This document shows, piece by piece, positions 3,973-55,016 of a stretch of DNA of 64,000 nucleotides. The stretch comes from a virus. The notes beneath the pieces are model-generated. The model ran no database searches. It saw only the letters and a program-made list of their open reading frames with translations, and was not told the DNA's origin. Numbering within the stretch: the stretch's first letter is position 1; every line of letters begins with the position of its first letter. The DNA is taken from IMG/VR virus record IMGVR_UViG_3300035670_000147, positions 1 to 64,000 of that record. The stretch is one strand, 5' to 3'. Position numbers and translations under genes: made by a program.

Positions 3973-6303
3973 ATGAGCACACACCATAAGACTGCGAATA
4001 CGCCTGATGTCGCCGCGCACCGGGAACTTTCTCCCGACGAAGAGCGCGCCTTGGAAACCGGGAAGTCTCGCTGGCTGCCGCGTATCTTTCAGAGTTACGG
4101 CACGCCGATTCCTGAACTTATGGCGAGCCCCTTGAAGACCGGCCTGATCTTTGGCGTCCCCGCGGGCTTGATCGGCGCTGGGTTGGGCAGCGCGATTGGC
4201 GGAGCGGCGCACGGCGCGAACGGCAAAGGCTACTCGGGGATGGGCGCGCTGCTCGGGGGTTTAGGTGCCGGAGGCTTAGCCGCCTTGGCCGCCGGCATGG
4301 ACCGCGAAGCCAAGAACGAAGGCTTGGAAGAACTCATGCGGCGCATGCCCGAAGGCGCGGCGAAGCGAGATTTGCTCGCCGACCCGCAGTACCAAGCCGA
4401 CTTTCTGGGCTGGGATAATAACAAGATTGTCGCGACGGCTCGGGCTCGCTATTACAGGCCCACGGAGCGATTTAGCAAGCGAACGGAAGACATGCGAGAC
4501 GCCCGGGCTCGCTATAATGAACGCAACAAAACTTCTAGTGTTAACAAGGATGTTTCCATGAGTAAGAACGAGCCGCGTACGCATTTTGTCGCGACGCCTG
4601 CTGCCCAAGCGGCCCGCACGCTGTTAGAAAATAACAACCTGACGCTCTCGGAAAAGATGGCGCAGTACAAAGCCTTGCTCCAGAAGCAGGCGTACGACAG
4701 CCCGACGATGGGCGCGAGCATTCCGCCGATGGCTGGGCCGGCGATGAGCCCGCCGCCGGGCTTCGACCCGTCGAACATGAAGATGCCAGTCTCGCCGACG
4801 ACGGGCTTGCCGATCAATAATCCCGACGCGCCCGCACTGCCCAGTAAGCCGGCCGCTCCGAAGTACACTGGCTCGGCGGACATGGGCGACTACACCGGCG
4901 TCGGCAAGATCGTCGACTCCGAGTTTCTCAAGCATTTATTTGGCGTTGGCGACCGCCGCTCGACACTGTACGACAAGACGTTCGCGCCAATTGGCCGCGG
5001 AATTTCGTCGGGCTTGGGAGCCACGGGTGACTTTCTGGGCAGCATGGGCAGCGCCGGTTTAAACGCCGGCAAATCGTTCGGCAAGTGGCTGAAGCCGGAC
5101 GCGCCTCCGCCTCCGACGCTGTTAGAACAACTCAAGCCGTACGCACCGGCGGCCGCGATTGGCGCTGGCGGTCTGGGCGCGATCGCCTTGGCCGATTACT
5201 TATCCCGGCGCAACAAGAAGAAGAAGAAGCGCCCGCAACAAACTGAAGATGAAGACGCAGGAGAATATTCTATGCCCAAGGCTGCAAATGTTAATTGGTA
5301 CGCGCTGGCCCGACACCGCCAGAAGCAGGCGAACGCGCTAAGTTTGGCGCGCACCGGGACGGGTTTGATCCCATACAGCCGCGTGGGTGCCGGCCTGTCA
5401 CACCTGCGCAGCATGTTGCGAGGCGCCGCTCCGTACGTCGATCCGTTTAATAAAAAGTCGCTGCCGTTCTACGCGGGCAGCCTGTTCGGCGGTGTCAACG
5501 AAGCGACGGGTGGCTTCGGGGTTCGCCCTGCGATCGCCAGCATGTTCAAGGGCAAAGACCCGTCGATGCTCCAGCAGGTCATGAACTCGAAGTACACGCC
5601 CTATGCCGCGGCTGGTTTAGCCGGCGCGGGCTTACTGGGTGGCGCTGCGTACATGGGCAATCGCGCGGGCAAGAATGACGCCAAGAAAAAGAAGAAGCCT
5701 GAAGGAAAGAACGAAAAGCAGTCGAACTTAGGCGGCGCTGGTCTGGGCGCTGGTGCCGGCGCTGGTCTGGGCGGGTTAGCCGGCGGCCTGTACGGCGCGC
5801 TGGCTCCGGGCTACGAAGAAGACCCGATGACCGGGCGTCGTCGTCGGCGGTCCCGGCTGACCGCCGCGCTGCGCGGACTGGCGGGTGGCGCGGCCCTCGG
5901 CGGCCTCGGTGGCGGCGCGGCCGGCTACTTCGCCGGCGACAAAAATATCAAGTCGGTGCTGGAGAAGTTCTTGGCCAACAAGTCGCAGGACGCAGGCCCT
6001 GACGCCGCCGCTGGTATTCGCACAGACGCGACGATGCAGCCTGATCCGGTGGAAGTAGCGAAGCAGGAAGCCTCGCAACCGCCGCCGGCCAGCGCATCCC
6101 CCGCGATTCCGCAAGGGCCGCAAGACGCGAACGCCACGATGGGCGGACAACCAGCGGCGCCGATGGCTCCGCCGGCAATGAGCATGCCACCGCAATCGCC
6201 GGCGCCTCCGGCTGGCGTGCCGCAGTCGCCCGTGATTCCGCAGGGCCCGCAGACCGCGAGCGCCACGATGGGCGCGATGCCGCAGCAGCAGCCCATGATG
6301 TAA
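3973..6303 (+). CDS. large Gly-zipper/Pro-rich putative virion polyprotein
   Basis: Long ORF (upstream ATG at 3955); several GxxxG-rich hydrophobic segments followed by basic tracts; QKQA, EKQS and PKAA motifs. Confidence 0.7.
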   Translation: MSTHHKTANTPDVAAHRELSPDEERALETGKSRWLPRIFQSYGTPIPELMASPLKTGLIFGVPAGLIGAGLGSAIGGAAHGANGKGYSGMGALLGGLGAGGLAALAAGMDREAKNEGLEELMRRMPEGAAKRDLLADPQYQADFLGWDNNKIVATARARYYRPTERFSKRTEDMRDARARYNERNKTSSVNKDVSMSKNEPRTHFVATPAAQAARTLLENNNLTLSEKMAQYKALLQKQAYDSPTMGASIPPMAGPAMSPPPGFDPSNMKMPVSPTTGLPINNPDAPALPSKPAAPKYTGSADMGDYTGVGKIVDSEFLKHLFGVGDRRSTLYDKTFAPIGRGISSGLGATGDFLGSMGSAGLNAGKSFGKWLKPDAPPPPTLLEQLKPYAPAAAIGAGGLGAIALADYLSRRNKKKKKRPQQTEDEDAGEYSMPKAANVNWYALARHRQKQANALSLARTGTGLIPYSRVGAGLSHLRSMLRGAAPYVDPFNKKSLPFYAGSLFGGVNEATGGFGVRPAIASMFKGKDPSMLQQVMNSKYTPYAAAGLAGAGLLGGAAYMGNRAGKNDAKKKKKPEGKNEKQSNLGGAGLGAGAGAGLGGLAGGLYGALAPGYEEDPMTGRRRRRSRLTAALRGLAGGAALGGLGGGAAGYFAGDKNIKSVLEKFLANKSQDAGPDAAAGIRTDATMQPDPVEVAKQEASQPPPASASPAIPQGPQDANATMGGQPAAPMAPPAMSMPPQSPAPPAGVPQSPVIPQGPQTASATMGAMPQQQPMM

Positions 6304-16227: not shown

Positions 16228-16299
16228 TGCCCGGTAGCACAATGGTAGTGCACGGCACTGTTAATGCTGGGGTTGTAAGTTCGAGTCTTACCCGGGCAG
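16228..16299 (+). tRNA. tRNA-Asn(GTT)
   Basis: Acceptor TGCCCGG/CCGGGCA plus G discriminator; D-loop TGGTA; anticodon arm CGGCA-CTGTTAA-TGCTG; T-arm GTAAG-TTCGAGT-CTTAC; CCA not encoded. Confidence 0.92.
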
Positions 16300-18572: not shown

Positions 18573-19607
18573 ATGGCTAAAGGACTCGACGTCGGAACTT
18601 CTTTTATCGTGCTGGCCTCGGACTCAGACGCCCCGATTAGTTACACCAGCGACGACAAGTTCGGGTACGTCAAATACACCGATTTCCGCGACGCCTTTTT
18701 CGTCATTAAGCCTACGACGCCAGTCGCCACGAAGATGATTGAAAAGGGCTTGCAGGGAAAAGTGTTCGTGAAAGACACGGACGGCTCATTTATCATTCTC
18801 GGTCAAGACGCGATCGAAAAAGCCATCGAGCGTAACGAGTCGGCCAAGCGCCCCATGTATCGCGGCGTTGTAAGCCCCAAAGAAAAAGAAGCGAAGCGCG
18901 TGCTGGCCTACATTCTCCAGCAGGTGTGCGGCCAAGCCAGCGAGCCGGACGAAAAGTTGGTGTTCTGTATTCCGGCCCAGCCCGTCGATCAAGAAGACGA
19001 CGAGTTTGATGTCGGATATCACGAAGATGTGGTCAAAACCGTGCTGCAGGGCCAAGGGTACAGCGCGCGGGCGATCAACGAGGCGGAAGCCCTGTGCTAC
19101 TCGGAGTTGGAGAACGACGATTACACTGGCGTGGCGCTGTCGTGGGGCGCCGGCATGGTGAACTGCTGCGTCATGCTCAACGGCGAGCCCACGGTGACGT
19201 TCTCGACCACGAAATCGGGCGACTGGATCGACCGCATGTCGGGCATTGCGACGGGCGAGCCGGATAGCGTCGTGCAGGCCGAGAAAGAAAATGGCGAGTT
19301 CGTAATTGGCGAACAGAATGACAATCCGGTTCTCGCCGCGGTCAGCGCCTACTATGAGCGGCTGATCGACTACACCACGAAGCAATTGGCAAATGCGCTC
19401 CGCGGGCACAAAGCCTTGCCCAAGTTCAAGAGTCCTTTGCTCGTCGCGTTAGCCGGCGGAACAACGCAGGCGCAGGGTTTTGTGGCGATGTTTGAAAAGA
19501 AACTGGCGGAGAATGAGTTTCCGTTGCCGGTCAAAGAAGTGCGCCACGCCGCAGACCCTTTACACGCAGTTGCCCGCGGTTGTTTGATTGCTGCCAAAGT
19601 GCTCTGA
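18573..19607 (+). CDS. actin-like ATPase (MreB/ParM/FtsA superfamily)
   Basis: Phosphate-1 GLDVGTS, connect NEAEA, phosphate-2 LSWGAG, adenosine LAGGT, C-terminal AVARG. Confidence 0.85.
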   Translation: MAKGLDVGTSFIVLASDSDAPISYTSDDKFGYVKYTDFRDAFFVIKPTTPVATKMIEKGLQGKVFVKDTDGSFIILGQDAIEKAIERNESAKRPMYRGVVSPKEKEAKRVLAYILQQVCGQASEPDEKLVFCIPAQPVDQEDDEFDVGYHEDVVKTVLQGQGYSARAINEAEALCYSELENDDYTGVALSWGAGMVNCCVMLNGEPTVTFSTTKSGDWIDRMSGIATGEPDSVVQAEKENGEFVIGEQNDNPVLAAVSAYYERLIDYTTKQLANALRGHKALPKFKSPLLVALAGGTTQAQGFVAMFEKKLAENEFPLPVKEVRHAADPLHAVARGCLIAAKVL

Positions 19608-19691
19608 TTTTTGCCACGCAGATAGACGCGCCCATCGACCCTTGGTACGATGGGCGCTTTCTTTTTTGAGGCGCGGAGCAAGGACGGCGTT

Positions 19692-20147
19692 ATGCGCAAG
19701 CAGGCTTTTGATGGAATTATTATTGCACACCTTGGCAACACAGATGGGCGGCAACCGGAGTTAGAAAACACGCTGCCGTATATTCAAAAAGCGTTAAAAG
19801 AAGGCTGGCACGTTTGCGTCGATGTCGTATTTAAATACGGGCAATTTCTGTTACCGCACGCCCGCGGCCACTATGCCGCCCCGCCGGCCCTGCTTTCTAA
19901 GCAGCGTGTTTGGAGCCGCGCCTTTGACGCCGACACCGTCGACGCGTTGTGCAACATTGGCGCCCATTGTTTTTTACATAGCGACAATTTTATGTCGTTA
20001 ACAAGCGCGCAGTTTATTTTTACATTGCCGCCACATGTGCTTTCACCCCGATCGATCGCTATGTTTCCGGAAACAACTAGCGACGACTGGTTAAAAAATT
20101 TTGAGCCAGCGGGGCTATGCAGCAACGAGCCGCGCCGGTATATCTAG
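19692..20147 (+). CDS. glycerophosphodiester phosphodiesterase-like protein
   Basis: IIAHLGN...ENT...ALKEGWHVCVDV pattern. Confidence 0.6.
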   Translation: MRKQAFDGIIIAHLGNTDGRQPELENTLPYIQKALKEGWHVCVDVVFKYGQFLLPHARGHYAAPPALLSKQRVWSRAFDADTVDALCNIGAHCFLHSDNFMSLTSAQFIFTLPPHVLSPRSIAMFPETTSDDWLKNFEPAGLCSNEPRRYI

Positions 20148-20208
20148 TCTCGTTCTTTGACAATTTGCCCGCACACGCTACCGGTCAAACCCCGGTAGTT
20201 TGTATAAT

Positions 20209-20442
20209 TGGTGTGTACCGTAAGTTGACCGTGGTGGTCGGTCGGTTAGGGTTGGAGCCAACGCAGGGATGCGGCAGCGACAACATGGTTTCGTGGTCAG
20301 GTTTAGTCGTGAACACGATCGGAGGCGCGGCGAATACCACACAGGGCGAAATTCCTTGCCCTCGAAAGTTGCCGTGAAGCCTTGATTTTTATCAAGGTCG
20401 GACCCGCGGAAAGGGGATCGCGGGGGCTTGCGGTACACACCA
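20209..20442 (+). ncRNA. candidate structured ncRNA (about 230 nt), family unknown
   Basis: 18-bp closing stem 20209-20226/20425-20442 with G-U pairs, many internal hairpins, TATAAT just upstream, T-run downstream. Confidence 0.6.
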
Positions 20443-20481
20443 TTTTTGACAAAAGAAACGACATTTACTGGTTTACGGTCT

Positions 20482-20847
20482 ATGCTCGATGATTTTATTG
20501 CATCTTTATCCGTGTTTGCGGCCTCGTTCGGCGTTTCGGCGTTCGCGGGGTTGGCGACCCTTTTGCGTTTCAGCCGCAAACTTTCTAAACTAGCGATTAC
20601 CAGCGCAATGCTGAATTCGGGGTTTATGGGCCTCGCCATTTCGTTGATTTGGTACCAAAACTACCGAGAAGCCGCGAACATTCATGGGTTAATTGGTATT
20701 TGTGTCCTTGCCGGCATGGGTGGTTCCACGCTGACCGACGTTTTAATTTCTGTGCTGTCGGGCGCCGGCATCAAAGTCGTCATTAATCACGAGAGGGACC
20801 GCGATGAACTCCACTGCCCCCACGACAGCGAGCGATCCAATGATTGA
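20482..20847 (+). CDS. putative holin (LydA-like)
   Basis: Three TM segments, GLAxLLR and LAGMGG patterns, charged C-terminus. Confidence 0.6.
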   Translation: MLDDFIASLSVFAASFGVSAFAGLATLLRFSRKLSKLAITSAMLNSGFMGLAISLIWYQNYREAANIHGLIGICVLAGMGGSTLTDVLISVLSGAGIKVVINHERDRDELHCPHDSERSND

Positions 20848-21025: not shown

Positions 21026-22948
21026 ATGGATGGCTTCTCTATTCTTGACGGCGTGTGGCGGAAACCGCTGACGAGCCAGCGCGAATACCACGTCGGCAAC
21101 GCGATTGGGTGGCTGGCGCGCACAGAAAAACAAGCCGCCACGCAACACGCCCTCGCCGGCCGGCTGTATGTGGCGAAAAGCGGCTGGCTACTCCTCTCGG
21201 TTCCGAACGCGCTGGTCCGGGGCGTCTACGACGCGATGACCGCCCCCGGCGCCGAACTTCCGCTGGCGGGCACTATGAATGTGCCCAACGTAGCCAGCGA
21301 TGTCTTGAACGCGCATATTTCGGTCATGACCGCCGAAGAAGTCAAAAAGATCGGCGCTGAAAATATCAATGAGCGCGGGCACATGGTCGGCTACTCGCTG
21401 GGCCACCTAAAAGAAATCACGCCGAGGAACGTTGCCGGCGTGAGCAAGGTCTGGGCGCTGCAGGTCTCGTCGCCCATGCTCTCGGCGATTCGTAAAAGTT
21501 ACGGGCTACAGCCGTTCGTAAATGGCCACCCGTTCCACATTACCGTTGCCGTGCGCCGGAAAAACGTGCTGCAGGCCAATAGCACGCGCAAAGCCGCGGC
21601 GGCCGCTAAAAGCCCGCAGCCCCGTGTGCGCGTCGTCGTGCCGTACAAAGACCAGTATTTGATGGAAACGCTCAATAACTCGAAGTGGCCTGAAAATATC
21701 GGCAAACGGCGATTTATCGGTGGCGGTATCGAAACGGGCGAAACACCAGAACAGGCCGCTGCGCGTGAGTTATTCGAAGAACTCGGCGTGAAGATCAAAC
21801 CGACCGCTTTTCGCGCTTTAGGTAACGATCCGCGCGAAGGATGGCAGCACGAGCATTATCTGGAACTGCCCAAGCACAAACTCAAGCCCGGAAATTTTAA
21901 CGCTACCGTTGGTTCTGACGCCGTGGTCACGCTTTCGCACGGGCTGCCCGAAGGCGACGATTATATGGGGCCAGACATCAAAAAACTGCTTGCTCCTGTT
22001 TTGAAGAAGGCAAATGACCTGCTTCACGGCGGCGCGGCAGACAATATGTCCGACAGTAAATTTCCCAAAGAAGAACTTGCCGAAGGAGCAGAGCATGAGC
22101 GCGAGCACACCGACAATGACCAAATCGCCAAAGAAATTGCCAAAGATCATCTGCAAGAAGACCCGGCCTACTACAAAAAAGTAGAGGCGATTGAAAAAGA
22201 CGCGGCTACAGCAGTGGTGCCGGTACCGCAGCCGCCGAAGCCGCCAGAAATGCGGGAAGATGTAACCGCCCCGCCTGAGATGCCCCCGCCCCCGACAGCC
22301 GACGTCGCGTTTGGTGTTGTCCCGCCGCCGGCTCTCCCGCCATCCGGGCAGCAACTCCAAAGCCCGCAGCAGACCCCAGAGCAAGAAGAGCAAGATAAAC
22401 AAGCAGAGTCTAAGGCGCTCTTGTTAGCCGAACTTCAAGCGGCAAAAGAGCACTCAGATAACAAGCGGTACGAACTAAAAACGCAAATTTTGCGGCGATT
22501 AATGCAACAATCGCCGCAAGACTGGCGTGTAGACGATCCAAAACCCTACCACAAAGGCATTACGCACGGGCCGACCAAGTTTAAGTTTCACGTCGAGCCG
22601 ACAGCGATTCCGGCGTCCGTAAAAGCCGCGGCCCGCCAGCCGCGCAGCGCGTACATGTCGGCGCTCTATAACTCGTACGGTCTGCATCGACCAATTACGT
22701 ACAACTACAACAAAACAGTTGCCGAAAACATTCAGGATCAAATGATGATGGTAAAGCAGCGCGGCGACTTCATGCGCAACGCTAAAATTAATCATCAGCG
22801 ATACATGGCCACGCTCGACCCCAAATACCGGTATGAGTTAGCAATGAAAGCCATGAATAACGAACTCGAAGAAGAGCCGATGGTCGACAAAATGATCGGG
22901 CGGTATGGCGATAGTTTTATGAACACGATTTTTGGGAGGCCGAAATGA
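21026..22948 (+). CDS. multidomain protein: 2H phosphoesterase + Nudix hydrolase + DUF5661-like + others
   Basis: HISV/HITV pair; Nudix box GGGIETGETPEQAAARELFEELG; GAEHEREHT...AKDHL.EDP.YY; domains separated by EKQA, RKAA, KKAN, EKDA, DKQA, VKAA. Confidence 0.8.
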   Translation: MDGFSILDGVWRKPLTSQREYHVGNAIGWLARTEKQAATQHALAGRLYVAKSGWLLLSVPNALVRGVYDAMTAPGAELPLAGTMNVPNVASDVLNAHISVMTAEEVKKIGAENINERGHMVGYSLGHLKEITPRNVAGVSKVWALQVSSPMLSAIRKSYGLQPFVNGHPFHITVAVRRKNVLQANSTRKAAAAAKSPQPRVRVVVPYKDQYLMETLNNSKWPENIGKRRFIGGGIETGETPEQAAARELFEELGVKIKPTAFRALGNDPREGWQHEHYLELPKHKLKPGNFNATVGSDAVVTLSHGLPEGDDYMGPDIKKLLAPVLKKANDLLHGGAADNMSDSKFPKEELAEGAEHEREHTDNDQIAKEIAKDHLQEDPAYYKKVEAIEKDAATAVVPVPQPPKPPEMREDVTAPPEMPPPPTADVAFGVVPPPALPPSGQQLQSPQQTPEQEEQDKQAESKALLLAELQAAKEHSDNKRYELKTQILRRLMQQSPQDWRVDDPKPYHKGITHGPTKFKFHVEPTAIPASVKAAARQPRSAYMSALYNSYGLHRPITYNYNKTVAENIQDQMMMVKQRGDFMRNAKINHQRYMATLDPKYRYELAMKAMNNELEEEPMVDKMIGRYGDSFMNTIFGRPK

Positions 22949-25109: not shown

Positions 25110-25937
25110 ATGGCACGGAAGCCGAAACAGACAACTGAAAGCAAAAACGTCATTCCAACGAGTCAGGCGTTAAAGTATTTGTTCAACCTTGGATATTTCG
25201 GAAAAGACCCGTGGTCGAAGGTTCGGTCAATACGCGGCAAGGAACTGGAAAAGGCCATTGCTGCGTATCAAGAGTTTAACGGGATTGAGCCGTGCGGGTG
25301 TGTAAACGACGTGACGGCCCACCGATTCAATCGGCGGCGGTGCGGGCTGCCGGACTTCGGGCTCACAGACCCGAACGGCGAGCCGTGCAAGTGGCCGATG
25401 AAAAACATTACGTACTATCACGAAATTAAAATGCCGGGATTGAGCGACGAGCAGGTTCGTGAGGCGTATGACGTCGCGTTCAGTCAGTGGGCCGAGGTTT
25501 GCAACATTGAACCGACCCGCGTTGACAGCCCGGCTCGTGCCAACATTTATGCGCGTTCCGGGACCGGCCGAAAAAATCATCTCGATAATCGCGGCGGCAC
25601 ATTAGCGTGGAGTGAGTTACCGTGCGGCGTTCATGAAACTATTCAGTTAGACCAGATGTACGACGAGGCTGAGCCGTGGTCGTTTAACATGGCTATCGCA
25701 GTGATGTGTCACGAACTCGGACACGCGCTTGGCCTGCCGCATTTAAACGATGGTAATTTAATGGCCCCGTACTACGACCCGAATGTGACGGCGCCGCAGA
25801 AAGATGATATTAAAGAAATCGTAAAGTTATACGGGAAACGCGCGCAAAAGTACCCCATTACGAAAGACGCGTCGCTAAAAATTGGCGGCACAATCGTAAT
25901 TAACGGTCGCCCGTATGTACTCGTGCCAAAAACCTGA
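25110..25937 (+). CDS. matrixin-family (M10) metalloprotease with PG-binding-like prodomain
   Basis: AIAAYQEFNGI..G (PGBD-like), cysteine switch RRCGLPD, HELGHALGLPH, Met-turn LMAPYY. Confidence 0.9.
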   Translation: MARKPKQTTESKNVIPTSQALKYLFNLGYFGKDPWSKVRSIRGKELEKAIAAYQEFNGIEPCGCVNDVTAHRFNRRRCGLPDFGLTDPNGEPCKWPMKNITYYHEIKMPGLSDEQVREAYDVAFSQWAEVCNIEPTRVDSPARANIYARSGTGRKNHLDNRGGTLAWSELPCGVHETIQLDQMYDEAEPWSFNMAIAVMCHELGHALGLPHLNDGNLMAPYYDPNVTAPQKDDIKEIVKLYGKRAQKYPITKDASLKIGGTIVINGRPYVLVPKT

Positions 25938-30246: not shown

Positions 30247-31263
30247 ATGGGCTACGCAGAAGACGGCAAAGAAATCATAAATAACATTGTGTTGGGCACC
30301 GGAGTCGGGGCCTCGGCGACGGGGCTGTATTATCTGGCCAAGAAACTGCGGAAGCGGTTTGAAGAGCAGTTGGCTAAGAATGCGCCCAATACGCCGGACT
30401 ATCACGACGTAGCCCTCGACGTGCCGAAACTCGAATCGCCTGCCCAGCCGAAGTTAGCATTTGACGCTTACAGTGTCGCGACACCTCTGGCTACTGGCGG
30501 TGCGAGCGCAATTCTGGCGGCGGCCCTGTCGAACAAAAAAAATAAACTTCGTAACGCCGCTATTGCAGGCGCGCTGGGTGCCGGCGCCGGCGCTGGTTTG
30601 AACACCAAGCCCGTGCACGAGTTTGTCGGTAAAAATATCCCCAGTTCTATCTTCCCGTTTCTCGAACCAGTTATGGGCGGCTCGTGGTTTGACCGCGGCT
30701 CTGGTTACAACGCTTGGAACGCCGCTTTGAATGTAGGTGGCGCCGGCCTTGGACTCGCAGGCGGAAAAGCCCTATACGACATGTCGGTCGCTCCGCAACT
30801 TGAGGTCGAGAAAAAGAAGGAGCACTACAACAGCGTAAACGACGCCCGTAAAAAATACTTTGACGCACTGCTGCGTGACGAAGACGACGACAAGAAGAGC
30901 GACAAGAAAGCCTCGGTAAACGACGCGCTCGAAGCCGCGTACACAGCCTACGCCGAAAAGAAAGCCGACTGGAAGGACTACATCAATCCGCTCAAACTGC
31001 CGCTATTAAAGCAGGTCTTTTACGACTTGCCCAACATGTACGCGGCGGCTGGCGTGGGCGCGACATTAGGTGGCGGCCTAATCGGCGGCAAATACATGTA
31101 CGACAAGACGATGGCGGCGTCAAAAGCCAAGAACTTGGCGAAAGCCCTCGCCGCCAAGGAGCGAATGAAAGATGCGCTGCCAGTGTGGGTCGACCCGCAA
31201 GAACTGGCGCAAATTAAAGACGTAGCCGCCGAGAAGGGCCTAGCCGCTGATCAAGGGGTGTGA
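30247..31263 (+). CDS. Gly-zipper putative virion protein
   Basis: PKLA, DKKAS and EKKAD motifs; repeated Gly-rich helices. Confidence 0.65.
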   Translation: MGYAEDGKEIINNIVLGTGVGASATGLYYLAKKLRKRFEEQLAKNAPNTPDYHDVALDVPKLESPAQPKLAFDAYSVATPLATGGASAILAAALSNKKNKLRNAAIAGALGAGAGAGLNTKPVHEFVGKNIPSSIFPFLEPVMGGSWFDRGSGYNAWNAALNVGGAGLGLAGGKALYDMSVAPQLEVEKKKEHYNSVNDARKKYFDALLRDEDDDKKSDKKASVNDALEAAYTAYAEKKADWKDYINPLKLPLLKQVFYDLPNMYAAAGVGATLGGGLIGGKYMYDKTMAASKAKNLAKALAAKERMKDALPVWVDPQELAQIKDVAAEKGLAADQGV

Positions 31264-31265
31264 CC

Positions 31266-34200
31266 ATGTCAGACCCGCTGCCCCCGCTGCGCGCCCCCGC
31301 TCCGTTTCCTCCCGCTCCAGCGCTCCCGCAGCCGACACCGCCACAAACGCGCGCATTCGGTGATGTTGGGGCTCTGCGCGACAGCATTTTTAACGAGGCG
31401 CTCCGCTCGGCGTCAGGGATCGAGCCGATTCAGAACGACCTGTATACGTTAAAGTTAACCAACGTCGCGTATACGGGTCCGGAACGCTACTCCCGTAAAG
31501 ACCAAAAGAAAGCGGTGTTAACTCGCGGCTCGTTGGCGCGAAAGTTAACAGGAACGTGGACTTTAATAGAAAATGGCTCGGAAAAGCCTGTCGCTACGCG
31601 ACAGGCTACTATAGCAAACGTGCCATATCTGACCGACTCGGGTACGTTTGTAAACAAAGGTGTCGAATACACGCTGGCACACCAACTCCGACTTCGGCCG
31701 GGCGTGTTCACGCGCGAAAAAGATAACGGCGAACTGGAGTCGCACGTTAACACGCTGCCGGGCAAGGGCCGCTCGCACCGGTATTACATGGACCCCAAAA
31801 CCGGCGAGTTTCAAATCCAAATCGGGCAGGCCAAGATTCCGCTGATGCCGCTGCTGAAGACGCTCGGCGTGCAGGAAAAGCAGATACGGGAAGCGTGGGG
31901 CAACGAGATCGCCTCTGTAAACATGCAGAAGGGCGATGCGGGCACGCTGGATAAACTTTACAGCCGCCTCGTGTTCAAGCCAGACCCCGCCGCAGATCAG
32001 TTAGCCAAGATCAAGGCTATCGCCGCGGAGTTCGCAAAAACAGAGTTAGACGAAGAGGTCACGAAACGAACGCTGGGCAAGCCGTACAAAAATCTCACGC
32101 CGGAAGCGATTCTCGACATCACCAAAAAACTCATCGCTGTTAATCGAAAAGAAGCCGACAGTGATGACCGAGACAGCATGACGTTTCAGCAAGTCTTTGG
32201 GCCGGAGGATTTGATATCAGAACGGTTTGTGAAAGATAAGACCGCGTTGCGTCAATTGTTGTGGAAAGCGACCGCAAAGAAGTCGCTCGACCATATTCCC
32301 AGCGGCGTATTTAACAAAGCCATTACCGCTGCGCTAATTGGCTCTGGGCTGGGTTCATCGCTCGAAGAAATTAATCCGGCAGAAATCTTTGACCATCAAA
32401 CGCGGGTCACCCGCCTTGGTGAGGGCGGCATTGGTTCGATGGACGCCGTACCGGCGGAATCGCGCAGCGTCCAGCCCAGCCATTTCGGGTTTATCGACTA
32501 CCTGCGCACGCCCGAGTCTGGCAAGGTGGGCGTCGACATGCGCTTCGCGTCGGGCGCCCGCAAGTTAGGTAATAACTTGCACACGTTTGTCGTGCCCGTC
32601 AAGAACGCTAACACTGGCGAGACAGAATATAAAACCCCGCAAGAACTGTCGGACATGCCGCTCATGTTTCCGGGCGAAGAGAAGTCCGACCTGCCGATGG
32701 TTGCGGCGCTTGTTAACGGCAAGATCAAATACGTGCCACGCAAGGACGCGCAGTACACCGTGCCGAACATGGACAACACTTTTTCGTCGCTGACAAACAT
32801 GGTGCCGATGAAAAGCATGGTAAAAGGCCAGCGCGTCATCATGGGCAGCCGCATGTTTACGCAGGCGCTTCCGCTTGAAAATGCTGAAGCCCCGTTTGTG
32901 CAGTCCGCTAAGTTTGATAGCGACGGGTCTATATCGCACGAAGACGAAATGGGCGAAAAGTTAGGCGCGATTAAAGCCCAAGTTGGCGGGCAGGTTCTGT
33001 CTGTCACGCCAGACGACATGGTTATTCGCGACAAGGACGGGCAAAAACACACGATAGACCTGTACAACGACATGCCGTTCAACCGAAAGACGTTTTGGAC
33101 GCAGACGCCGACAGTCAAGCCCGGCGATACGGTGCAGCCCGGCCAACTTATTGCCACAAGCAACTTTACTGACAAAAGCGGCTCGGCCGCGCTGGGGCTG
33201 AACTTGCGCGTAGGCTACACGCCGTTTCGTGGTCGGAACTATGAAGACGCGGTTGTGATATCTGAATCGGCGGCCAAGAAACTTACTAGCCAGCACATGT
33301 ATCAGCACGAAGCCGAGTGGGACGACAACACGCACGTCGGAAAAAAGTCTTTTTTGAGTTTGTTTCCCGCCGAATATGACAAGAAGGTGCTAGAAAACTT
33401 TGACGACAACGGCGCAATTAAAAAGGGTTCAATCGTAAACTTCGGTGATCCGCTTGTGCTCGTCGCCAAGAAGCGCGATCAGGTGTACGGCAAAGTACAC
33501 CGCGGCCGAGCGGGTGCTTTTGCAAATGAAACAATTACGTGGGAACATCATTCTCCGGGCGTTGTGACTGACGTTGAGCACACAAAAAAGGGCGTATCGG
33601 TCGTCGTGAAGTCGCAGGCGCAGATGGAGGTTGGCGATAAAATTACGGGTCGTTTCGGCGATAAGGGCGTTGTGTCTGAAATTGTGCCGGACGACCAGAT
33701 GCCGCAGGACGCGAAGGGTCGCCCGCTTGAAATTCTGGTCAGTCCGCTCGGCCTTATAAACCGCGTAAACCCGGCGCAAATTATTGAAGCGGCTCTCGGA
33801 AAAGTTGCCGAAAAAACTGGCAAGCCGTTCAAAATCAAAGACTTCGACAACGACAATGATTTGATCGAAATGGCGATGGCTGAGTTGACTAAAAACGGTC
33901 TGACAGACACCGAAGACCTGATAGACCCCGAGACTGGGCGCAAGATTCGCGGCGTGCTGACTGGCAATCGTTTCTTTATGAAACTGCACCATACGGCAGA
34001 GTCGAAGGGGCAGGGGCGGTCTATTGGTGGTTACACGGCAGAAGGCACGCCGGCAAAAGGCGGCAGCGAAGGCGCCAAGCGTGTCGGCATGTTGGAACTG
34101 GGTGCGCTTCTTTCGCACGGTGCCGGCAAAGTAGTCCGCGACGCCAAAATGGTGCGCGGACAGGCTAACCCTGAGTATTGGACGCAGTTCATGGCCGGTT

Positions 34201-35696
34201 ACGACCCGCCGCTGCCCAAGGTGCCGCACGTCTACGAAAAGTTTGTGAATCAATTGCGAGGCGCCGGCGTTAACGCAGTTCGGACCGGTACGAAAACGCA
34301 CATCATGGCGCTGACCGACAAGAACATCGACGAGTTAGCGGGCGACCGTGAAATCCAGAACGCCGAAACCGTGGATTGGAAGGGCAACCTTAAGCCCGTA
34401 AAGGGCGGGTTGTTTGACGAAACACTCACCGGCGGGCATAACGGCAATCGCTGGTCAAAAATAACATTGCACGAACCGATGCCGAATCCAATCATGGAAG
34501 AACCAATTCGGCGTACGCTTGGGCTGACAGAAAAGAAATTTCGCGCGATACTCGCCGGGCAAGAAAAACTGGGCGACAAAACTGGCCCGACAGCAATTCA
34601 CGAAGCGTTGAAAGCCGTTAACCTGCCGCGCGCAATCGAACAAGCGCGTGCTGATATTAAGTCTGGTCGCCGCACACTGCGCGACGCGGCGGTGCGTCGC
34701 TTGGCGTTTTTGAAGGGCGCCGAAGCAACGGGCGTGCACCCCAAAGACTGGATGCAAACAAAGGTAGGCGTCTTGCCGCCGGCATTTCGCCCCGTGTCGA
34801 CGATGGGCGCAAAAAGAATGCAACTTATCGACGACGCAAACTATTTGTACAAAGAACTGCTTGATTCAAATAACGTGCTGAAAGAAGCGTCTGGATTACT
34901 GTCGGATGTGGGCAACGAGCGGCTGTCGCTGTACGACTCGATGAAAGCCGTCTCAGGTTTAGGCGACCCGCAGCACCCGAAAAACGTCGAGCGAAATGTC
35001 CGCGGATTTTTGTCAAAGATATTTGGTGATAGCCCCAAGTTCGGCACGATGCAGCGCAAGTTGTTGTCGAGCACCGTCGATCTTGTAGGTCGTGCGGTAA
35101 TTTCGCCCAACCCAGACCTCGACATGGACGAGGTAGCGCTGCCCGAAGACAAGGCGTGGGAGATTTACAAGCCGTTCGTGGTTCGCGGCCTTATTCGGCG
35201 CGGAATGCCGCGCATGAACGCGCTGCGCGCCGTTGAAGAACGCAACAAAGAAGCGTTTGCTGAGTTAAATACGCAGATGGGGTCGAAACCAATTGTTATT
35301 AACCGCGCTCCGGTGCTGCATCGATACGGCGTAATGGCGTTTTACCCGCGTCTTACCAAGAACAAAGTCATGGAAGTCAACCCGGTTATTACCAAGGGGT
35401 TCGGGGCCGATTTCGACGGCGACGCGATGCAATATCACGTCCCCAGCACCGACGATGCCGCGAAAGAAGCCATAGAAAAAATGCTGCCTAGCCGCAATTT
35501 GTTTGCGGCGTCCAACTTTAAAGCGCATTACGTGCCCAACAAAGATTACCAAACTGGTGTATACTTAGCGTCCAGCAAGATTAATAGCAAATCAAAACCG
35601 CGCGTATATCGCACCAAAAAAGACGCTCTCGCGGCCTACCGCCGCGGTGACATCGATGTAGACACGCCGGTACATATTGTGGAAGATAAAGCCTGA
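31266..35696 (+). CDS. rpoB: DNA-directed RNA polymerase beta fused to the N-terminal half of beta'
   Basis: Beta motifs TPESGKVG, MGSRMFTQA, NYEDAVVIS, GDKITGRFGDKGV, RVGMLELGAL; then beta' motifs GGLFD, VLPPAFRP, VDLVGRAVI, NRAPVLHR and catalytic GADFDGD. Confidence 0.95.
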   Translation: MSDPLPPLRAPAPFPPAPALPQPTPPQTRAFGDVGALRDSIFNEALRSASGIEPIQNDLYTLKLTNVAYTGPERYSRKDQKKAVLTRGSLARKLTGTWTLIENGSEKPVATRQATIANVPYLTDSGTFVNKGVEYTLAHQLRLRPGVFTREKDNGELESHVNTLPGKGRSHRYYMDPKTGEFQIQIGQAKIPLMPLLKTLGVQEKQIREAWGNEIASVNMQKGDAGTLDKLYSRLVFKPDPAADQLAKIKAIAAEFAKTELDEEVTKRTLGKPYKNLTPEAILDITKKLIAVNRKEADSDDRDSMTFQQVFGPEDLISERFVKDKTALRQLLWKATAKKSLDHIPSGVFNKAITAALIGSGLGSSLEEINPAEIFDHQTRVTRLGEGGIGSMDAVPAESRSVQPSHFGFIDYLRTPESGKVGVDMRFASGARKLGNNLHTFVVPVKNANTGETEYKTPQELSDMPLMFPGEEKSDLPMVAALVNGKIKYVPRKDAQYTVPNMDNTFSSLTNMVPMKSMVKGQRVIMGSRMFTQALPLENAEAPFVQSAKFDSDGSISHEDEMGEKLGAIKAQVGGQVLSVTPDDMVIRDKDGQKHTIDLYNDMPFNRKTFWTQTPTVKPGDTVQPGQLIATSNFTDKSGSAALGLNLRVGYTPFRGRNYEDAVVISESAAKKLTSQHMYQHEAEWDDNTHVGKKSFLSLFPAEYDKKVLENFDDNGAIKKGSIVNFGDPLVLVAKKRDQVYGKVHRGRAGAFANETITWEHHSPGVVTDVEHTKKGVSVVVKSQAQMEVGDKITGRFGDKGVVSEIVPDDQMPQDAKGRPLEILVSPLGLINRVNPAQIIEAALGKVAEKTGKPFKIKDFDNDNDLIEMAMAELTKNGLTDTEDLIDPETGRKIRGVLTGNRFFMKLHHTAESKGQGRSIGGYTAEGTPAKGGSEGAKRVGMLELGALLSHGAGKVVRDAKMVRGQANPEYWTQFMAGYDPPLPKVPHVYEKFVNQLRGAGVNAVRTGTKTHIMALTDKNIDELAGDREIQNAETVDWKGNLKPVKGGLFDETLTGGHNGNRWSKITLHEPMPNPIMEEPIRRTLGLTEKKFRAILAGQEKLGDKTGPTAIHEALKAVNLPRAIEQARADIKSGRRTLRDAAVRRLAFLKGAEATGVHPKDWMQTKVGVLPPAFRPVSTMGAKRMQLIDDANYLYKELLDSNNVLKEASGLLSDVGNERLSLYDSMKAVSGLGDPQHPKNVERNVRGFLSKIFGDSPKFGTMQRKLLSSTVDLVGRAVISPNPDLDMDEVALPEDKAWEIYKPFVVRGLIRRGMPRMNALRAVEERNKEAFAELNTQMGSKPIVINRAPVLHRYGVMAFYPRLTKNKVMEVNPVITKGFGADFDGDAMQYHVPSTDDAAKEAIEKMLPSRNLFAASNFKAHYVPNKDYQTGVYLASSKINSKSKPRVYRTKKDALAAYRRGDIDVDTPVHIVEDKA

Positions 35697-36659: not shown

Positions 36660-38612
36660 GTGCTAAAAACCACCCTCGGCCAGTTAATGATTAACGAAGC
36701 GCTTCCTGAAGACATGCGCGATTACGAGCGCGTGTTGGACAAGAAGACTATGGGCGCGCTGGCGACTGATCTGGCAAAACGATATCCGGATCGTTATCGC
36801 GAGGTGATGAAAAAAATTCACGACGTCTCTCGCGACGTGGCATACACGACGGGCGGTCTTTCGATGGGCTTGAAGGACATTCGCCCCACGTTTGCCAGCC
36901 AACACGCGCAAATTAAAGTGCGCAAAGAACTGCGGCAGATTCTGGCAGACACGAGTTTGTCAGACAAAGAACGCGAGTTGCGAATCCTCAAACTCGCCGC
37001 CGAGACGCAGCAGAAACTTGTCGAAGACGTATTTAACGAAGCCCGCGACGCGAATAACCCGCTTGCCCATCAAGTGCTGGCCGGCGCGACTGGTAACAAA
37101 TTCATGTTAAATTCGCTACTGGGCGCCGACCTGCAATACGTAGACCACCGCGACCAGCCGATTCCGCTGCCCGTAATGCGGAGTTACAGTCGGGGCTTAA
37201 CTCCTGCAGAGTACTTCGCGGCGTCTTTCGGCACGCGTAAGGGTGTTATTGACGTAAAGACTGCCACAGCAGACGCCGGATTTTACGGCAAGCAACTAAC
37301 GCAGATGGCGCACCGTTTACTCGTTACAGCCGACGATGACGACGACGAAGACAGGCTTAGAACTGCGCACAATCGCGGCCTGCCGTCCGACGTCGACGAT
37401 CCGGACAACGAAGGCGCTTTTTTAGCGCGACCTGTGGGGCCATACAAGCGAAACACTGTACTGACGCCCAAAATTCTCAAAGATATCAAAGCGATGGGCG
37501 TAAAAGATATTTTAGTGAGAAGCCCGCTCGTCGGTGGGCCAGAAGATGGCGGCGTGTACGCCAAAGACGTCGGATACCGCGAAAAAAGTCGGGTGCCGCC
37601 GGTCGGCGATTATGTCGGCATTGCCGCTGCGCAAGCGCTGTCTGAGCCAGTCTCGCAATCGCAACTATCGTCTAAGCACTCGGGCGGTGTTGGCGGCGCA
37701 AAGTCTATTTCTGGCTTCAAGGCTATCAACGCGCTAGTACAAGTGCCGCGCAAATATCCTGACGGCGCGACGCACGCTCAGCGCGAGGGTCGCGTGCAGG
37801 AAATACGCCCGGCGGCGCAGGGCGGATTTTATGTCACGGTAGACGGCGAAGATCATTACGTCCCGGCCGACCGGCAGGTCTCCGTAAAAAAAGGCGACGT
37901 GCTGGAGGCCGGCGACGTGCTGTCCGACGGCATGCCAAACCCGGCCGAAATTGTTAAGCACAAAGGCGTCGGCGAGGGCCGTAAATACTTTGTGCAGGCA
38001 ATGCGCCAAGTTTTAGGCAACTCAGGTATCACCGCTCAGCGCCGAAACATTGAACTCGTGGCGCGGGGTTTGATTAATCACGTTCGGCTGACCGACGAAT
38101 ATGGCGATTACGCTCCGGACGACATTATTCCGTATTCCATGCTTGAGCGCTCGTGGCGCCCGCGCTCCGGAGCCGTGGCGTCAGCGCCCAGCGCGCTTGT
38201 AAATCATTATTTGGAAGAACCCGTACTGCACTACTCGGTCGGCACAAAAATAACAAAAAGCGTCGCTGACAATTTAAAGAAGTACGGTATTGCAACAGTG
38301 CAGGCTCACAAGCAGCCGCCGCCGTTCGAGTCAGAGATGGTGCGCGGCATGGCGAATATATCGAACGACCCCGACTGGATGACCCGCATGCTGGGTTCTT
38401 ATCAGGAGCGCGGGTTTTTAAACAGTGTTCACCGCGGACTGGCCAGCGACACGGCCGGCAGCAGTTACGTTCCGGCGCTGGCACGAGGCGAAGAATTTGG
38501 CAATTCTGGCCCCACAAGCGGCTGGAAACCTGCGCCGCCCTCCGGTAGCATATTGCAGCCCGTCCCCAAGCCCCCGACAAGTCCGCTAGGCTCTGAGCCA
38601 AAAACACTGTAA
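36660..38612 (+). CDS. rpoC: RNA polymerase beta' C-terminal subunit
   Basis: TTLGQL..N, GLTPAEYF..GTRKG..TADAG (bridge helix), VGIAAAQALSEP.SQ.QL..KHSGG (trigger loop). Confidence 0.92.
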   Translation: MLKTTLGQLMINEALPEDMRDYERVLDKKTMGALATDLAKRYPDRYREVMKKIHDVSRDVAYTTGGLSMGLKDIRPTFASQHAQIKVRKELRQILADTSLSDKERELRILKLAAETQQKLVEDVFNEARDANNPLAHQVLAGATGNKFMLNSLLGADLQYVDHRDQPIPLPVMRSYSRGLTPAEYFAASFGTRKGVIDVKTATADAGFYGKQLTQMAHRLLVTADDDDDEDRLRTAHNRGLPSDVDDPDNEGAFLARPVGPYKRNTVLTPKILKDIKAMGVKDILVRSPLVGGPEDGGVYAKDVGYREKSRVPPVGDYVGIAAAQALSEPVSQSQLSSKHSGGVGGAKSISGFKAINALVQVPRKYPDGATHAQREGRVQEIRPAAQGGFYVTVDGEDHYVPADRQVSVKKGDVLEAGDVLSDGMPNPAEIVKHKGVGEGRKYFVQAMRQVLGNSGITAQRRNIELVARGLINHVRLTDEYGDYAPDDIIPYSMLERSWRPRSGAVASAPSALVNHYLEEPVLHYSVGTKITKSVADNLKKYGIATVQAHKQPPPFESEMVRGMANISNDPDWMTRMLGSYQERGFLNSVHRGLASDTAGSSYVPALARGEEFGNSGPTSGWKPAPPSGSILQPVPKPPTSPLGSEPKTL

Positions 38613-50072: not shown

Positions 50073-50103
50073 AGGCTGACCGATTCGTCGGTCAGCCTTT
50101 TTT
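50073..50103 (+). terminator. Rho-independent terminator
   Basis: AGGCTGACCGA-TTCG-TCGGTCAGCCT followed by a T tract. Confidence 0.9.
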
Positions 50104-50138
50104 ATTTGTATACTAAGACGTAAATACAGGAGCAATTT

Positions 50139-51128
50139 ATGGCCGTCATTGCCACGCCTACGTCTCACGCGCTCGAACAATGCTGTGACAACCGCAATAC
50201 GGCGCCCGTTTTGACGCCTGTTTCGTGCGCGGGGCAAAGCATAGTTAGCGCCCCGATCTCTGAGCAAAACGGCCAGCCCGTCCTGACGCGAATGCGGGCT
50301 ATTTCGATTACACAAGGCCAGTGCGCCACAATTACGTGGCAAATGCACGATAAAGACGGCTTGCCGGTCGACATGTCGGCGTGCAACGAACTGCCGCTAA
50401 AAGTCGTATTGCGCCTGCGCGAACAAATTGCGCTCAGCCACACGTCGCCAACAGTGCAGGTCGACGCGACAGTAACGGACGCAGCGACAGGCAAGATCGA
50501 AGTACAACTAACTAAAAATATGGTCGGAATACCGGGAATCTTTTATGGCGAAATGGCGTTAATCAACATTCCGGCCGAAGAAGCCGGGCTGCCATGCGTC
50601 GTATTCTCGAACACTTTTTACGTAATTATTAACCGCAGCGCTTTTGATGCGCGCGGCGGGCTGAATAGCGGGCCACCGAGTGTTGCCGAGATCAGGCTGC
50701 ATTTACGAGATTCAGCGCCGAATGAAAGTTATCTGTTAGAACATTTAATGTTTGATGACGCGGAAATCGCGCTCGCCATCGGCCGCCCAGTTATGTACTG
50801 GAACGAGACGCCGCCTCCGCTGCGCACATTCAGCACACAAAACTTTCCGTTCAGATATCATTGGCTTGAAGGCATTTGCGCCAATTTATTCATGATGGTA
50901 GCCGAGCAGTTTCGGCGTAATCAGTTGACTTACTCTGCCGGCGGAATTCAAGTAGACGACCAAAACAAAGAATCGTCGTACGAACGCGCGGGTCAGGCGC
51001 GCTGGCAGGCTTACCGCGAATGGGTCAGAGCCACGAAAGCCAGCATCAACCTCGAAAGTTGCTATGGTGAGGTGTCGTCGAACTACAAATACAGCGCCTA
51101 CACCGACGCGATCAGGATTCGGTACTAG
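50139..51128 (+). CDS. putative head-tail adaptor/neck protein
   Basis: N-terminal Ig-like part plus EIRLHLRD..FDDAEI helical adaptor-like part; follows the MCP. Confidence 0.55.
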   Translation: MAVIATPTSHALEQCCDNRNTAPVLTPVSCAGQSIVSAPISEQNGQPVLTRMRAISITQGQCATITWQMHDKDGLPVDMSACNELPLKVVLRLREQIALSHTSPTVQVDATVTDAATGKIEVQLTKNMVGIPGIFYGEMALINIPAEEAGLPCVVFSNTFYVIINRSAFDARGGLNSGPPSVAEIRLHLRDSAPNESYLLEHLMFDDAEIALAIGRPVMYWNETPPPLRTFSTQNFPFRYHWLEGICANLFMMVAEQFRRNQLTYSAGGIQVDDQNKESSYERAGQARWQAYREWVRATKASINLESCYGEVSSNYKYSAYTDAIRIRY

Positions 51129-54389: not shown

Positions 54390-54424
54390 ACGCAGCAACC
54401 GCAGCGCAGAAGGGAGGTAATAAG

Positions 54425-54986
54425 GTGTTTACGTAAATACGGCCCGCGGAGTTAACAACTCGCGCGGGCAATCTATTTTGCGCATTTTAGTTCGTTGGCG
54501 CAGAGTAGACGTAGGACGAAACTAACGAGCACAGGCGAGCGAAAAGTCGCCCGGGGACAAAAGTCGCGACCTCGTCGGTTGCGATACTTTTCGGGGTGGT
54601 TGGTCCTGCACCCATAGAGATACCAGAGAGATAGCCGGGACGTCGCGCAAGCGAAACGCCGGCGACTCGTCTCTGTAAGGCACAGTACCCCGGATTTGTA
54701 GTGGGGCGCGCAAAATGGATAGGCAGGCGCGTTTTATGTAAAATCCGGAGCGCCTGCGGGCGCTTATACGCCACGTCTGAAGGGCCTAGTCCCCGCAGAC
54801 ATGTTTCCTCGTTGTACCTTTCGGCCGCGATAATAATAACTAACGCGCGCCGGTTGTTGCCGCCATGGCCGGTGAACAACGAGCCAGTTAACGCGCGAGC
54901 CCGCGTAAGCGGGTCGTTAACGGGGGACGCCGGGTGGGAGAGTTGCTAGCCTCTCCCACCCGGCGCACATCGCACTTCTTTTTTTT
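54425..54986 (+). ncRNA. candidate large structured ncRNA (about 550 nt), family unknown
   Basis: Dense hairpins, long-range helix, predicted pseudoknot, terminal 16-bp hairpin and T-run; no credible ORF. Confidence 0.55.
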
Positions 54987-55004
54987 AGATATCAGACGCC
55001 GGGG

Positions 55005-55010
55005 TATAAT
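55005..55010 (+). promoter_or_regulatory. -10 box (TATAAT), probably driving a leaderless mRNA
   Basis: TATAAT ends 6 nt before ATG 55017; no SD sequence. Confidence 0.5.
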
Positions 55011-55016
55011 TACGCT

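Follow-up and report, generated by a model that had tools for sequence, protein, structure and literature searches.

What lies in the 334-nucleotide (nt) gap between a 165-amino-acid (aa) open reading frame (ORF; positions 19650 to 20147) and a 121-aa ORF (20482 to 20847) in the phage record IMGVR_UViG_3300035670_000147, and what might it do there? The stretch of DNA analyzed here (the window) comprises the first 64 kb of this 73,293-base IMG/VR virus record, whose completeness is put at 36% by CheckV, and nearly all of its long ORFs lie on the + strand. An initial annotation, made from the letters of the window alone, had proposed that the gap holds an RNA of about 230 nt, directly upstream of a holin gene, and that it is either a novel phage noncoding RNA or a cis-acting regulator of lysis timing. 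We find that the gap does contain a structured phage RNA with strong covariation and no coding potential, and that it represents a new, well-defined structured family of about 230 nt in a clade of approximately 200-kb phages (complete relatives of 198 to 205 kb, two of them with direct terminal repeats). The element and its parts, with pairing and two-sided changes counted in the 31-sequence alignment described below, are as follows.

20209-20442, + strand: the structured RNA, 234 nt, delineated by folding, a covariance model, and covariation.
20209-20225 with 20426-20442, + strand: helix P1, 15 counted pairs, 12 with two-sided changes, 99.1% paired.
20226-20231 with 20239-20244, + strand: hairpin P2, 6 pairs, 3 with two-sided changes, 100% paired.
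20234-20238 with 20336-20340, + strand: pseudoknot in which the P2 loop pairs with ACCAC of the P5 internal loop, 5 pairs, 100% paired.
20251-20284, + strand: long hairpin P3, with an outer stem (20251-20258 with 20277-20284) and a tip (20262-20265 with 20270-20273).
20291-20295 with 20314-20318, + strand: P4, a 5-base-pair (bp) stem with a nearly invariant 18-nt loop, 100% paired.
20327-20333 with 20369-20375, + strand: P5, which encloses P5a, 7 pairs, 6 with two-sided changes, 100% paired.
20343-20348 with 20357-20362, + strand: P5a, 6 pairs, 5 with two-sided changes, 98.4% paired.
20379-20398, + strand: hairpin P6, 7 pairs, all 7 with two-sided changes, 94.8% paired.
20403-20424, + strand: hairpin P7, 7 pairs, 2 with two-sided changes, 100% paired; its 8-nt loop is purine rich and conserved.

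The + strand of the element folds with a minimum free energy (MFE) of −107.5 kcal/mol, against a mean of −82.7 for shuffled sequences (z = −5.67; none of 200 shuffles as good). Both strands beat their shuffles (− strand, −87.8 kcal/mol; z = −5.40), the + strand being better by about 20 kcal/mol on account of its G-U pairs, three of which fall in P1; together with G-U intermediates among the homologs, these pairs render the structure strand specific. The pairing of an 18-nt 5′ arm (20209-20226) with 20425-20442, which the initial annotation had proposed with its three G-U pairs included, is recovered in both the sequence and the MFE structure.

The first homologs were reached through the flanking proteins and with nhmmer. 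IMG/VR was then scanned with four degenerate patterns derived from the conserved parts of the sequence, which recovered 14, 13, 21, and 49 loci and, in union, 51 distinct viral contigs besides the window's own record. A covariance model of 233 positions and 63 pairs (R1) matched 19 of 19 loci of the first set, two of them clipped by contig ends, as well as all 30 of the new loci, at 164 to 244 bits. Removal of identical copies left 31 distinct full-length sequences (alignment A7), and all loci come from one syntenic clade. A weak covariance match in contig L047 (6447-6484; 11.7 bits; E = 0.097) was deemed a chance match and kept out of the alignments. A distant-mode DNA search of 50,697 phage records with a 351-nt query found nothing. 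Outside viral contigs, the pattern search returned 5 matches in genome contigs (from the genomes of 185,579 species) and 8 in JGI metagenome contigs, of which just two, L033 and L035, belong to the family. The remaining 11 are chance occurrences of the 20-base pattern alone within unrelated, apparently coding sequence, with nhmmer alignments of at best 45 to 53 nt (E = 0.008 to 0.013) and no covariance-model match in the 7 of the 11 that were tested; the pattern scan of the 185,579 species' genomes showed no bacterial genome carrying the RNA.

Covariation among these homologs, a check that the initial annotation had called for, upholds the fold. RNAalifold applied to a plain MAFFT alignment of 11 sequences predicted 71 pairs, 26 of them with compensatory changes. 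The 31-sequence alignment was fitted to the model, so that counts from it lean towards the structure, which was set by hand and has 70 pairs with the pseudoknot included; in it, 95.8% of the cells are paired (82.7% in shuffles and 35 to 46% in slid controls), 49 of the 70 pairs show two-sided changes (31.3 in shuffles and 15 to 21 in slid controls), and the covariation score is 0.509 against 0.242 for shuffles, with none of 500 shuffles reaching the observed values. A 17-sequence alignment gave a similar result.

P1 thus encloses a multiway junction of six helices, P2 to P7, whose fold is locked by the pseudoknot that ties the P2 loop to the P5 internal loop, and the strands that join the helices are near-invariant in all 31 sequences. 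Five of the internal helices proposed at the outset are borne out by covariation in these sequences: GACCG/CGGTC (P2), the hairpin CGC-AGGGAT-GCG (the tip of P3), AGGGC/GCCCT (P5a), CCTTGAT/ATCAAGG (P6), and CCCGCG/CGCGGG (P7). A sixth, CGGCAGC (20272) with GTTGCCG (20368), fails, being 59.1% paired, with 488 of 500 shuffles as high and a two-sided change in 1 pair; GTTGCCG pairs instead with 20327-20333 to form P5, and 20272-20278 is part of P3. The length of P1 is 14 to 21 bp in 29 of the 31 sequences as measured by script; the script mis-anchored the other two (L040 and L055), the former having 18 bp by hand. In the pseudoknot, one pair is UA in 14 sequences, CG in 9, and UG in 8, and another is UA in 28, CG in 2, and UG in 1. 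The closing pair of P4 is likewise CG in 16, UA in 13, and UG in 2, with a second pair UA in 28 and CG in 3, and the two-sided changes of P7 run from CG to UA in 13 and 14 of the 31. The P3 segment folds into the same long hairpin in 18 of 18 sequences, and its tip loop is a near-invariant GGGA (UGGA in 3 of 31). Its inner and middle parts are 90 to 94% paired and show two-sided changes; for the 4 pairs of the outer part the figure is 57%, because the groups of sequences are aligned there with a shift of one column. When all column pairs were scanned for further tertiary contacts, mostly splits between sequence groups 1 and 2 emerged, and two candidates, A7 columns 99/162 (G-C in 12, A-U in 18) and 104/109 (in the P4 loop), were inseparable from phylogeny.

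To which class of elements does it belong? All 4,227 models of Rfam 15, a set that covers RNase P, tmRNA, 6S, SRP, riboswitches, self-cleaving ribozymes, group I and II introns, GOLLD, ROOL, HEARO, and Y RNA, gave 0 matches to region 20100-20550 at an E value of ≤10. The novelty that the initial annotation had left to an Rfam search therefore stands, as does its remark that RNase P, tRNA, and tmRNA signatures are lacking: ARAGORN finds only a tRNA-Asn (GTT) gene at 16228-16299, 4 kb from the structured RNA and the sole known RNA gene in the window by Rfam at the gathering threshold and by ARAGORN. A retron msr-msd was also considered; the flanking ORFs scanned contain no reverse transcriptase domain, and no recognizable nuclease adjoins either. 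That the element might not be an RNA at all, and is rather a repeat of the miniature inverted-repeat transposable element (MITE) type with terminal inverted repeats, an origin, or a small coding gene, has some basis in the inverted repeats that form its ends, in two ORFs that overlap it in the window (20117-20377, + strand, 86 aa; 20178-20639, − strand, 153 aa), and in the better-than-shuffled folding of its − strand. We find this hardly credible in the face of the strand-specific G-U pairs and intermediates. Among 17 homologs, moreover, no frame is open throughout, the lengths of 231 to 235 nt differ by amounts that are not multiples of 3, and the variable columns fall at 42/46/46 of 78 each by position modulo 3, indicating no codon periodicity. 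A dispersed repeat is excluded, five related phage records (four of them 97 to 100% complete) and the window's own record having a single match apiece, and the cumulative GC skew climbs steadily through the window without a switch.

The surroundings of the RNA bear on what it might do. The features adjoining it are the following.

20153-20164, + strand: conserved box TTCTTTGACAAT, with a −35-like TTGACA, 33 to 91 nt upstream of P1 in 30 of 31 homologs.
20177-20199, + strand: variable hairpin between the box and the hexamer, with an 8-bp stem in the window.
20203-20208, + strand: TATAAT, a −10-like hexamer adjoining P1.
20443-20447, + strand: T-run (TTTTT) directly after P1.
20482-20847, + strand: gene for a 121-aa protein with three transmembrane (TM) segments (3-TM), holin-like as a lead only.

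The usual gene order is a volactin-like actin homolog, the 165-aa ORF (phrog_34507, function unknown), the RNA, the 3-TM protein, a small TM ORF, and a protein with 2H-SAK, NUDIX, and DUF5661 domains. In all 31 loci, the next gene after the RNA, on the same strand and separated from it by 9 to 57 nt, is the 3-TM gene; its start codon was set by direct reading of the sequence for 6 of these loci, where the script had missed or mis-set it, and the 9-nt spacer of L060 counts to the first ATG, the homologous start being 21 nt away. The upstream neighbor differs in 4 of 10 loci examined, the 165-aa gene being missing in L060 and L055 and additional ORFs being present in L073 and L071.

The placement directly upstream of a holin, as first claimed, holds in respect of a 121-aa 3-TM ORF at 20482, while holin is a tentative identity for that protein, drawn from an ESM-feature lead only. 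The protein shows no significant Pfam match (DUF6404 at E = 0.16 is far below the cutoff) and no PHROG family. It has 251 homologs in a collection of 5.8 billion proteins, which implies many more loci than the 51 collected here; among the 120 listed (at least 64% identical) none has a Pfam domain, and a few carry automatic JGI labels, e.g., "YccA/Bax inhibitor family." In its nearest named ESM clusters, 10 to 50% of the members carry Phage_holin_3 families, with scores of 0.89 to 0.91 that by the tool's own calibration are only a lead, so that the protein is a possible holin. In L060, the most diverged relative and the only such case in 31, the 3-TM protein has an extra N-terminal M-R-R-Q before the usual start methionine (5755-5780), which could be a dual-start (holin/antiholin) arrangement like that of lambda S. 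A protein encoded 4.3 kb downstream of the holin-like gene (25110-25937) matches Peptidase_M10 (matrixin; 6e-21), with a PG_binding_1 match below the cutoff (19 versus 23 bits), and could be an endolysin. The idea of lysis timing rests on the candidate holin assignment and on this peptidase with its subthreshold peptidoglycan-binding match.

The TATAAT upstream and the T-run downstream of the element, both present as first described, have counterparts in the relatives. A TAnnnT hexamer (TATAAT, TAAAAT, TACAAT, or TAAACT), read by eye, stands 0 to 5 nt ahead of P1 in 31 of 31 loci and is preceded by TGn, the extended −10 form, in 19. At least 3 consecutive T follow P1 in 27 of 31. Counted over 12 nt beginning at the third-last pair of P1, the mean is 5.3 T, against about 2.3 expected from the 19.5% T of the window. 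The box TTCTTTGACAAT travels with the RNA even where the upstream gene differs. It is not repeated in the window, the other 9 matches at ≤2 mismatches all carrying 2 and 8 of them lying on the − strand. Its TTGACA was rejected as the −35 element of an ordinary promoter, because 28 of 30 loci have no TAnnnT 15 to 19 nt behind it and the distance to the hexamer varies. A repeated phage promoter was likewise rejected, since other genes of the window have neither of the two boxes (A/T or TTGACA-containing) ahead of them. The hairpin at 20177-20199 is possibly a terminator of the upstream gene; on its own this segment folds no better than shuffles (z = −1.03), and a counterpart of different sequence folds in most relatives, L060 having none. 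Elsewhere in the window, sigma-70-type −10 boxes occur after terminator-like hairpins and upstream of genes at about 55001-55016, where TATAAT lies 8 nt ahead of an ATG at 55017 and thereby suggests a leaderless mRNA, and at 50100-50138, where TTTGTATACT stands behind a hairpin and T-run and ahead of a gene at 50139.

Parts of the stretch also occur in three RNA libraries from three metatranscriptome studies (shares of 0.17, 0.07, and 0.07), the runs being labeled freshwater or metagenome; as they contain relatives, we take no habitat for this phage from these labels. The four library contigs are 197 to 254 nt long, resemble the window at 85 to 95%, and are assemblies of relatives, so that their ends may be assembly breaks and DNA carry-over is possible. 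Their spans, unaligned ends included, are as follows.

About 20229-20439: first library contig.
About 20231-20427: second library contig.
About 20221-20477: third library contig.
About 20244-20483: fourth library contig.

None reaches upstream of about 20221 or the upstream hairpin, none enters the downstream ORF, and two of the four run 36 to 42 nt beyond P1. We read this as weak evidence for a short RNA species that is abundant and shows some read-through.

How, then, might the RNA act? With slightly less than even confidence, we favor a leader that lies next to its promoter, acts in cis, and controls read-through into the operon behind it, the first gene of which would be the 3-TM, holin-like gene. 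Transcription would start at or just behind the TAnnnT hexamer, the folded core would bring both arms of P1 together, and P1 with the U-rich tract directly behind it, for which P1 itself could be the terminator stem, would form a terminator-like roadblock. Most transcripts would then end as a short, stable RNA, with read-through set by a partner of the conserved core, which might be a small ligand, RNA polymerase itself, or a protein of the phage or the host; the promoter, the RNA ends, termination at P1, and all of the regulation are parts that we infer. We lean to this leader because the 3-TM gene adjoins the RNA throughout while the upstream neighbor varies, because the hexamer adjoins P1 in every locus, because of the U-rich tract behind P1, because the library contigs are confined to about 20221-20483, and because near-invariant junction strands are typical of a binding core. 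The spacer of only 9 to 21 nt in several loci leaves no room for a separate promoter, which also supports a leader acting in cis, and the similar −10-like boxes after terminator hairpins near 50106 and 55001 are taken as support for the promoter. Two features expected of a riboswitch are present, namely, a covarying aptamer-like fold and a 5′ leader position on the same strand (31 of 31 loci, within the one syntenic clade).

Several observations weigh against a cis-acting leader. The spacer, variable in length and sequence, contains no conserved alternative helix or expression platform in the 31 loci; P1 greatly exceeds, in both length and stability, the switchable P1 helices of known riboswitches; and no ligand or factor is known for the core. 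The U tract attains at least 4 U in only 13 of 31 loci, and the downstream product is only tentatively a holin. Linkage to the 3-TM gene is weak evidence because the loci form a single syntenic clade. A sigma-70 scan calls no promoter at the P1 hexamer, as there is no −35 element at 16 to 18 nt. The P1 pairs covary to within 1 to 3 nt of the hexamer (in L040, L004, L021, and L073), which misfits a start 7 nt after a −10 box, so that the RNA may begin upstream and be processed; this pairing suggests either an unusual start, the phage having its own polymerase, or 5′ processing. The library contigs, open to the doubts given above and from relatives whose flanks are too diverged to align at 80%, prove neither transcription nor true ends.

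The main rival, doubtful but a serious contender, is a stand-alone, stable RNA that acts in trans (as a ribonucleoprotein scaffold, a decoy or sponge, or an RNA-only assembly) and is cut from or terminated within a longer transcript; its position upstream of the 3-TM gene would then be merely operon architecture, like that of tRNAs in phage operons. Such an RNA would accord with the long, blunt P1 of 14 to 21 bp that joins the 5′ and 3′ ends, as is typical of stable RNAs, with the lack of a conserved expression platform, and with its presence as a single copy in all five related records tested. Library contigs limited to the RNA and at most 42 nt beyond it suggest accumulation above the neighboring mRNAs, and the conserved A/U-rich box beside P1 could be a processing site, pairing of P1 up to that box fitting a processed 5′ end. 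No partner protein is identifiable, however, among the neighbors (the volactin-like, 165-aa, 3-TM, and 2H/NUDIX proteins); the lack of room in some loci for a promoter of the 3-TM gene's own places the RNA physically within the leader of that mRNA; and the adjacency to the 3-TM gene is invariant (31 of 31 loci) beside a variable upstream side. A further alternative, which we consider improbable, is a processing module that frees or stabilizes the downstream mRNA, P1 being a double-stranded site of the RNase III type, as found in phage T7 and in rRNA operons, or the core being a new self-cleaving ribozyme. The P1 duplex does close a large domain that adjoins the ribosome-binding region of the next gene where the spacer is down to 9 to 21 nt, and the invariant core nucleotides are compatible with catalysis; yet the element matches none of the known families of self-cleaving ribozymes, six conserved inner helices and a pseudoknot are more than a simple RNase III site would need, and the library contigs keep the 3′ arm of P1 intact and in two of four cases pass beyond it.

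If the cis-acting leader is right, its arrangement would work most like the PR′-6S-tR′ leader of phage lambda, a large junction riboswitch, or an antiterminator of the put/EAR type, while being a member of none of these. In lambda, a promoter-proximal transcript of about 200 nt and a terminator lie directly upstream of holin gene S, the short RNA accumulates, and the late and lysis genes (S/R/Rz) need read-through. The lambda leader differs in having no conserved, multihelix, pseudoknotted fold and in being controlled by the Q protein at the promoter, whereas here no antiterminator has been identified, the holin is only a lead, and the putative terminator stem is the long-range P1 that closes a 200-nt domain. 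With the lysine, FMN, and cobalamin riboswitches, the phage RNA shares a same-strand 5′ leader position, a P1 around a near-invariant junction, tertiary pairs of the loop-loop or loop-internal-loop kind, and a size in the range of 150 to 230 nt; it differs from them in matching no model at an E value of ≤10, in its P1 of 14 to 21 bp as against a few switchable pairs, in the absence of a conserved expression platform, and in a downstream gene of no known metabolic or transport class. HK022 put and Bacillus EAR, the latter an Rfam family, are likewise structured RNAs that sit just downstream of the promoter heading a long phage or bacterial operon and need no expression platform of their own, but they are smaller (about 70 to 120 nt) and unrelated in sequence, and the phage RNA has no match in Rfam. 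GOLLD and ROOL resemble it as large, ornate, strongly covarying phage or prophage RNAs of unknown function, to which may be added the tRNA gene 4 kb away here; they are 2 to 4 times longer, their models do not match, and the present RNA is always tied to one downstream gene.

Several other features of the window deserve mention. The ORF at 18573-19607 encodes an actin homolog with a full-length match to Pfam Volactin (PF25216; 2.2e-58), and among 50,697 phage records only two uncultured huge phages match it, at 32 to 36% identity. The 640-aa protein encoded at 21026-22948, in the same operon as the RNA, combines the 2H-SAK phosphoesterase, NUDIX, and DUF5661 domains and is a possible RNA-repair or nucleotide-signal-degrading enzyme. 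Viral 2H phosphoesterases in RNA repair are treated in PMC9503650, which provides context for this 2H/NUDIX gene only. A single ORF of 1,478 aa at 31260-35696 contains both Rpb2 (beta) and Rpb1 (beta′) domains (Rpb2 domain 6, 1e-49; Rpb1 domain 2, 7e-23) and is followed by a further polymerase-like ORF at 36660-38612; the phage thus encodes its own multisubunit RNA polymerase, the subunits of which are apparently fused. A 311-nt intergenic stretch at 54390-54700 also folds better than shuffles (z = −3.63; none of 100 as good) and is possibly a second structured RNA.

To our knowledge, few large, intricately folded RNA families have come from phages and none from upstream of a lysis-type gene; the listings and abstract openings of the literature on structured or noncoding RNAs of jumbo phages and on holin riboswitches in phages describe no such RNA. 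A more specific and, in our estimate, unlikely form of the leader would be a new class of large sensing RNA that serves as a "lysis gate," in which the seven-way junction binds a metabolite, a nucleotide signal, or RNA polymerase and thereby decides between a stop at P1 and the U tract and read-through into the holin-like gene and those that come after it, including the genes for the 2H/NUDIX enzyme and the peptidoglycan-binding metallopeptidase. Were this so, lysis or late gene expression in these approximately 200-kb phages would be timed by an RNA. The clean comparative signal, defined pseudoknot, and fixed genomic setting make the family directly testable, and through it a new RNA mechanism, regulatory or structural, could come to light in jumbo phages with their own multisubunit RNA polymerase.

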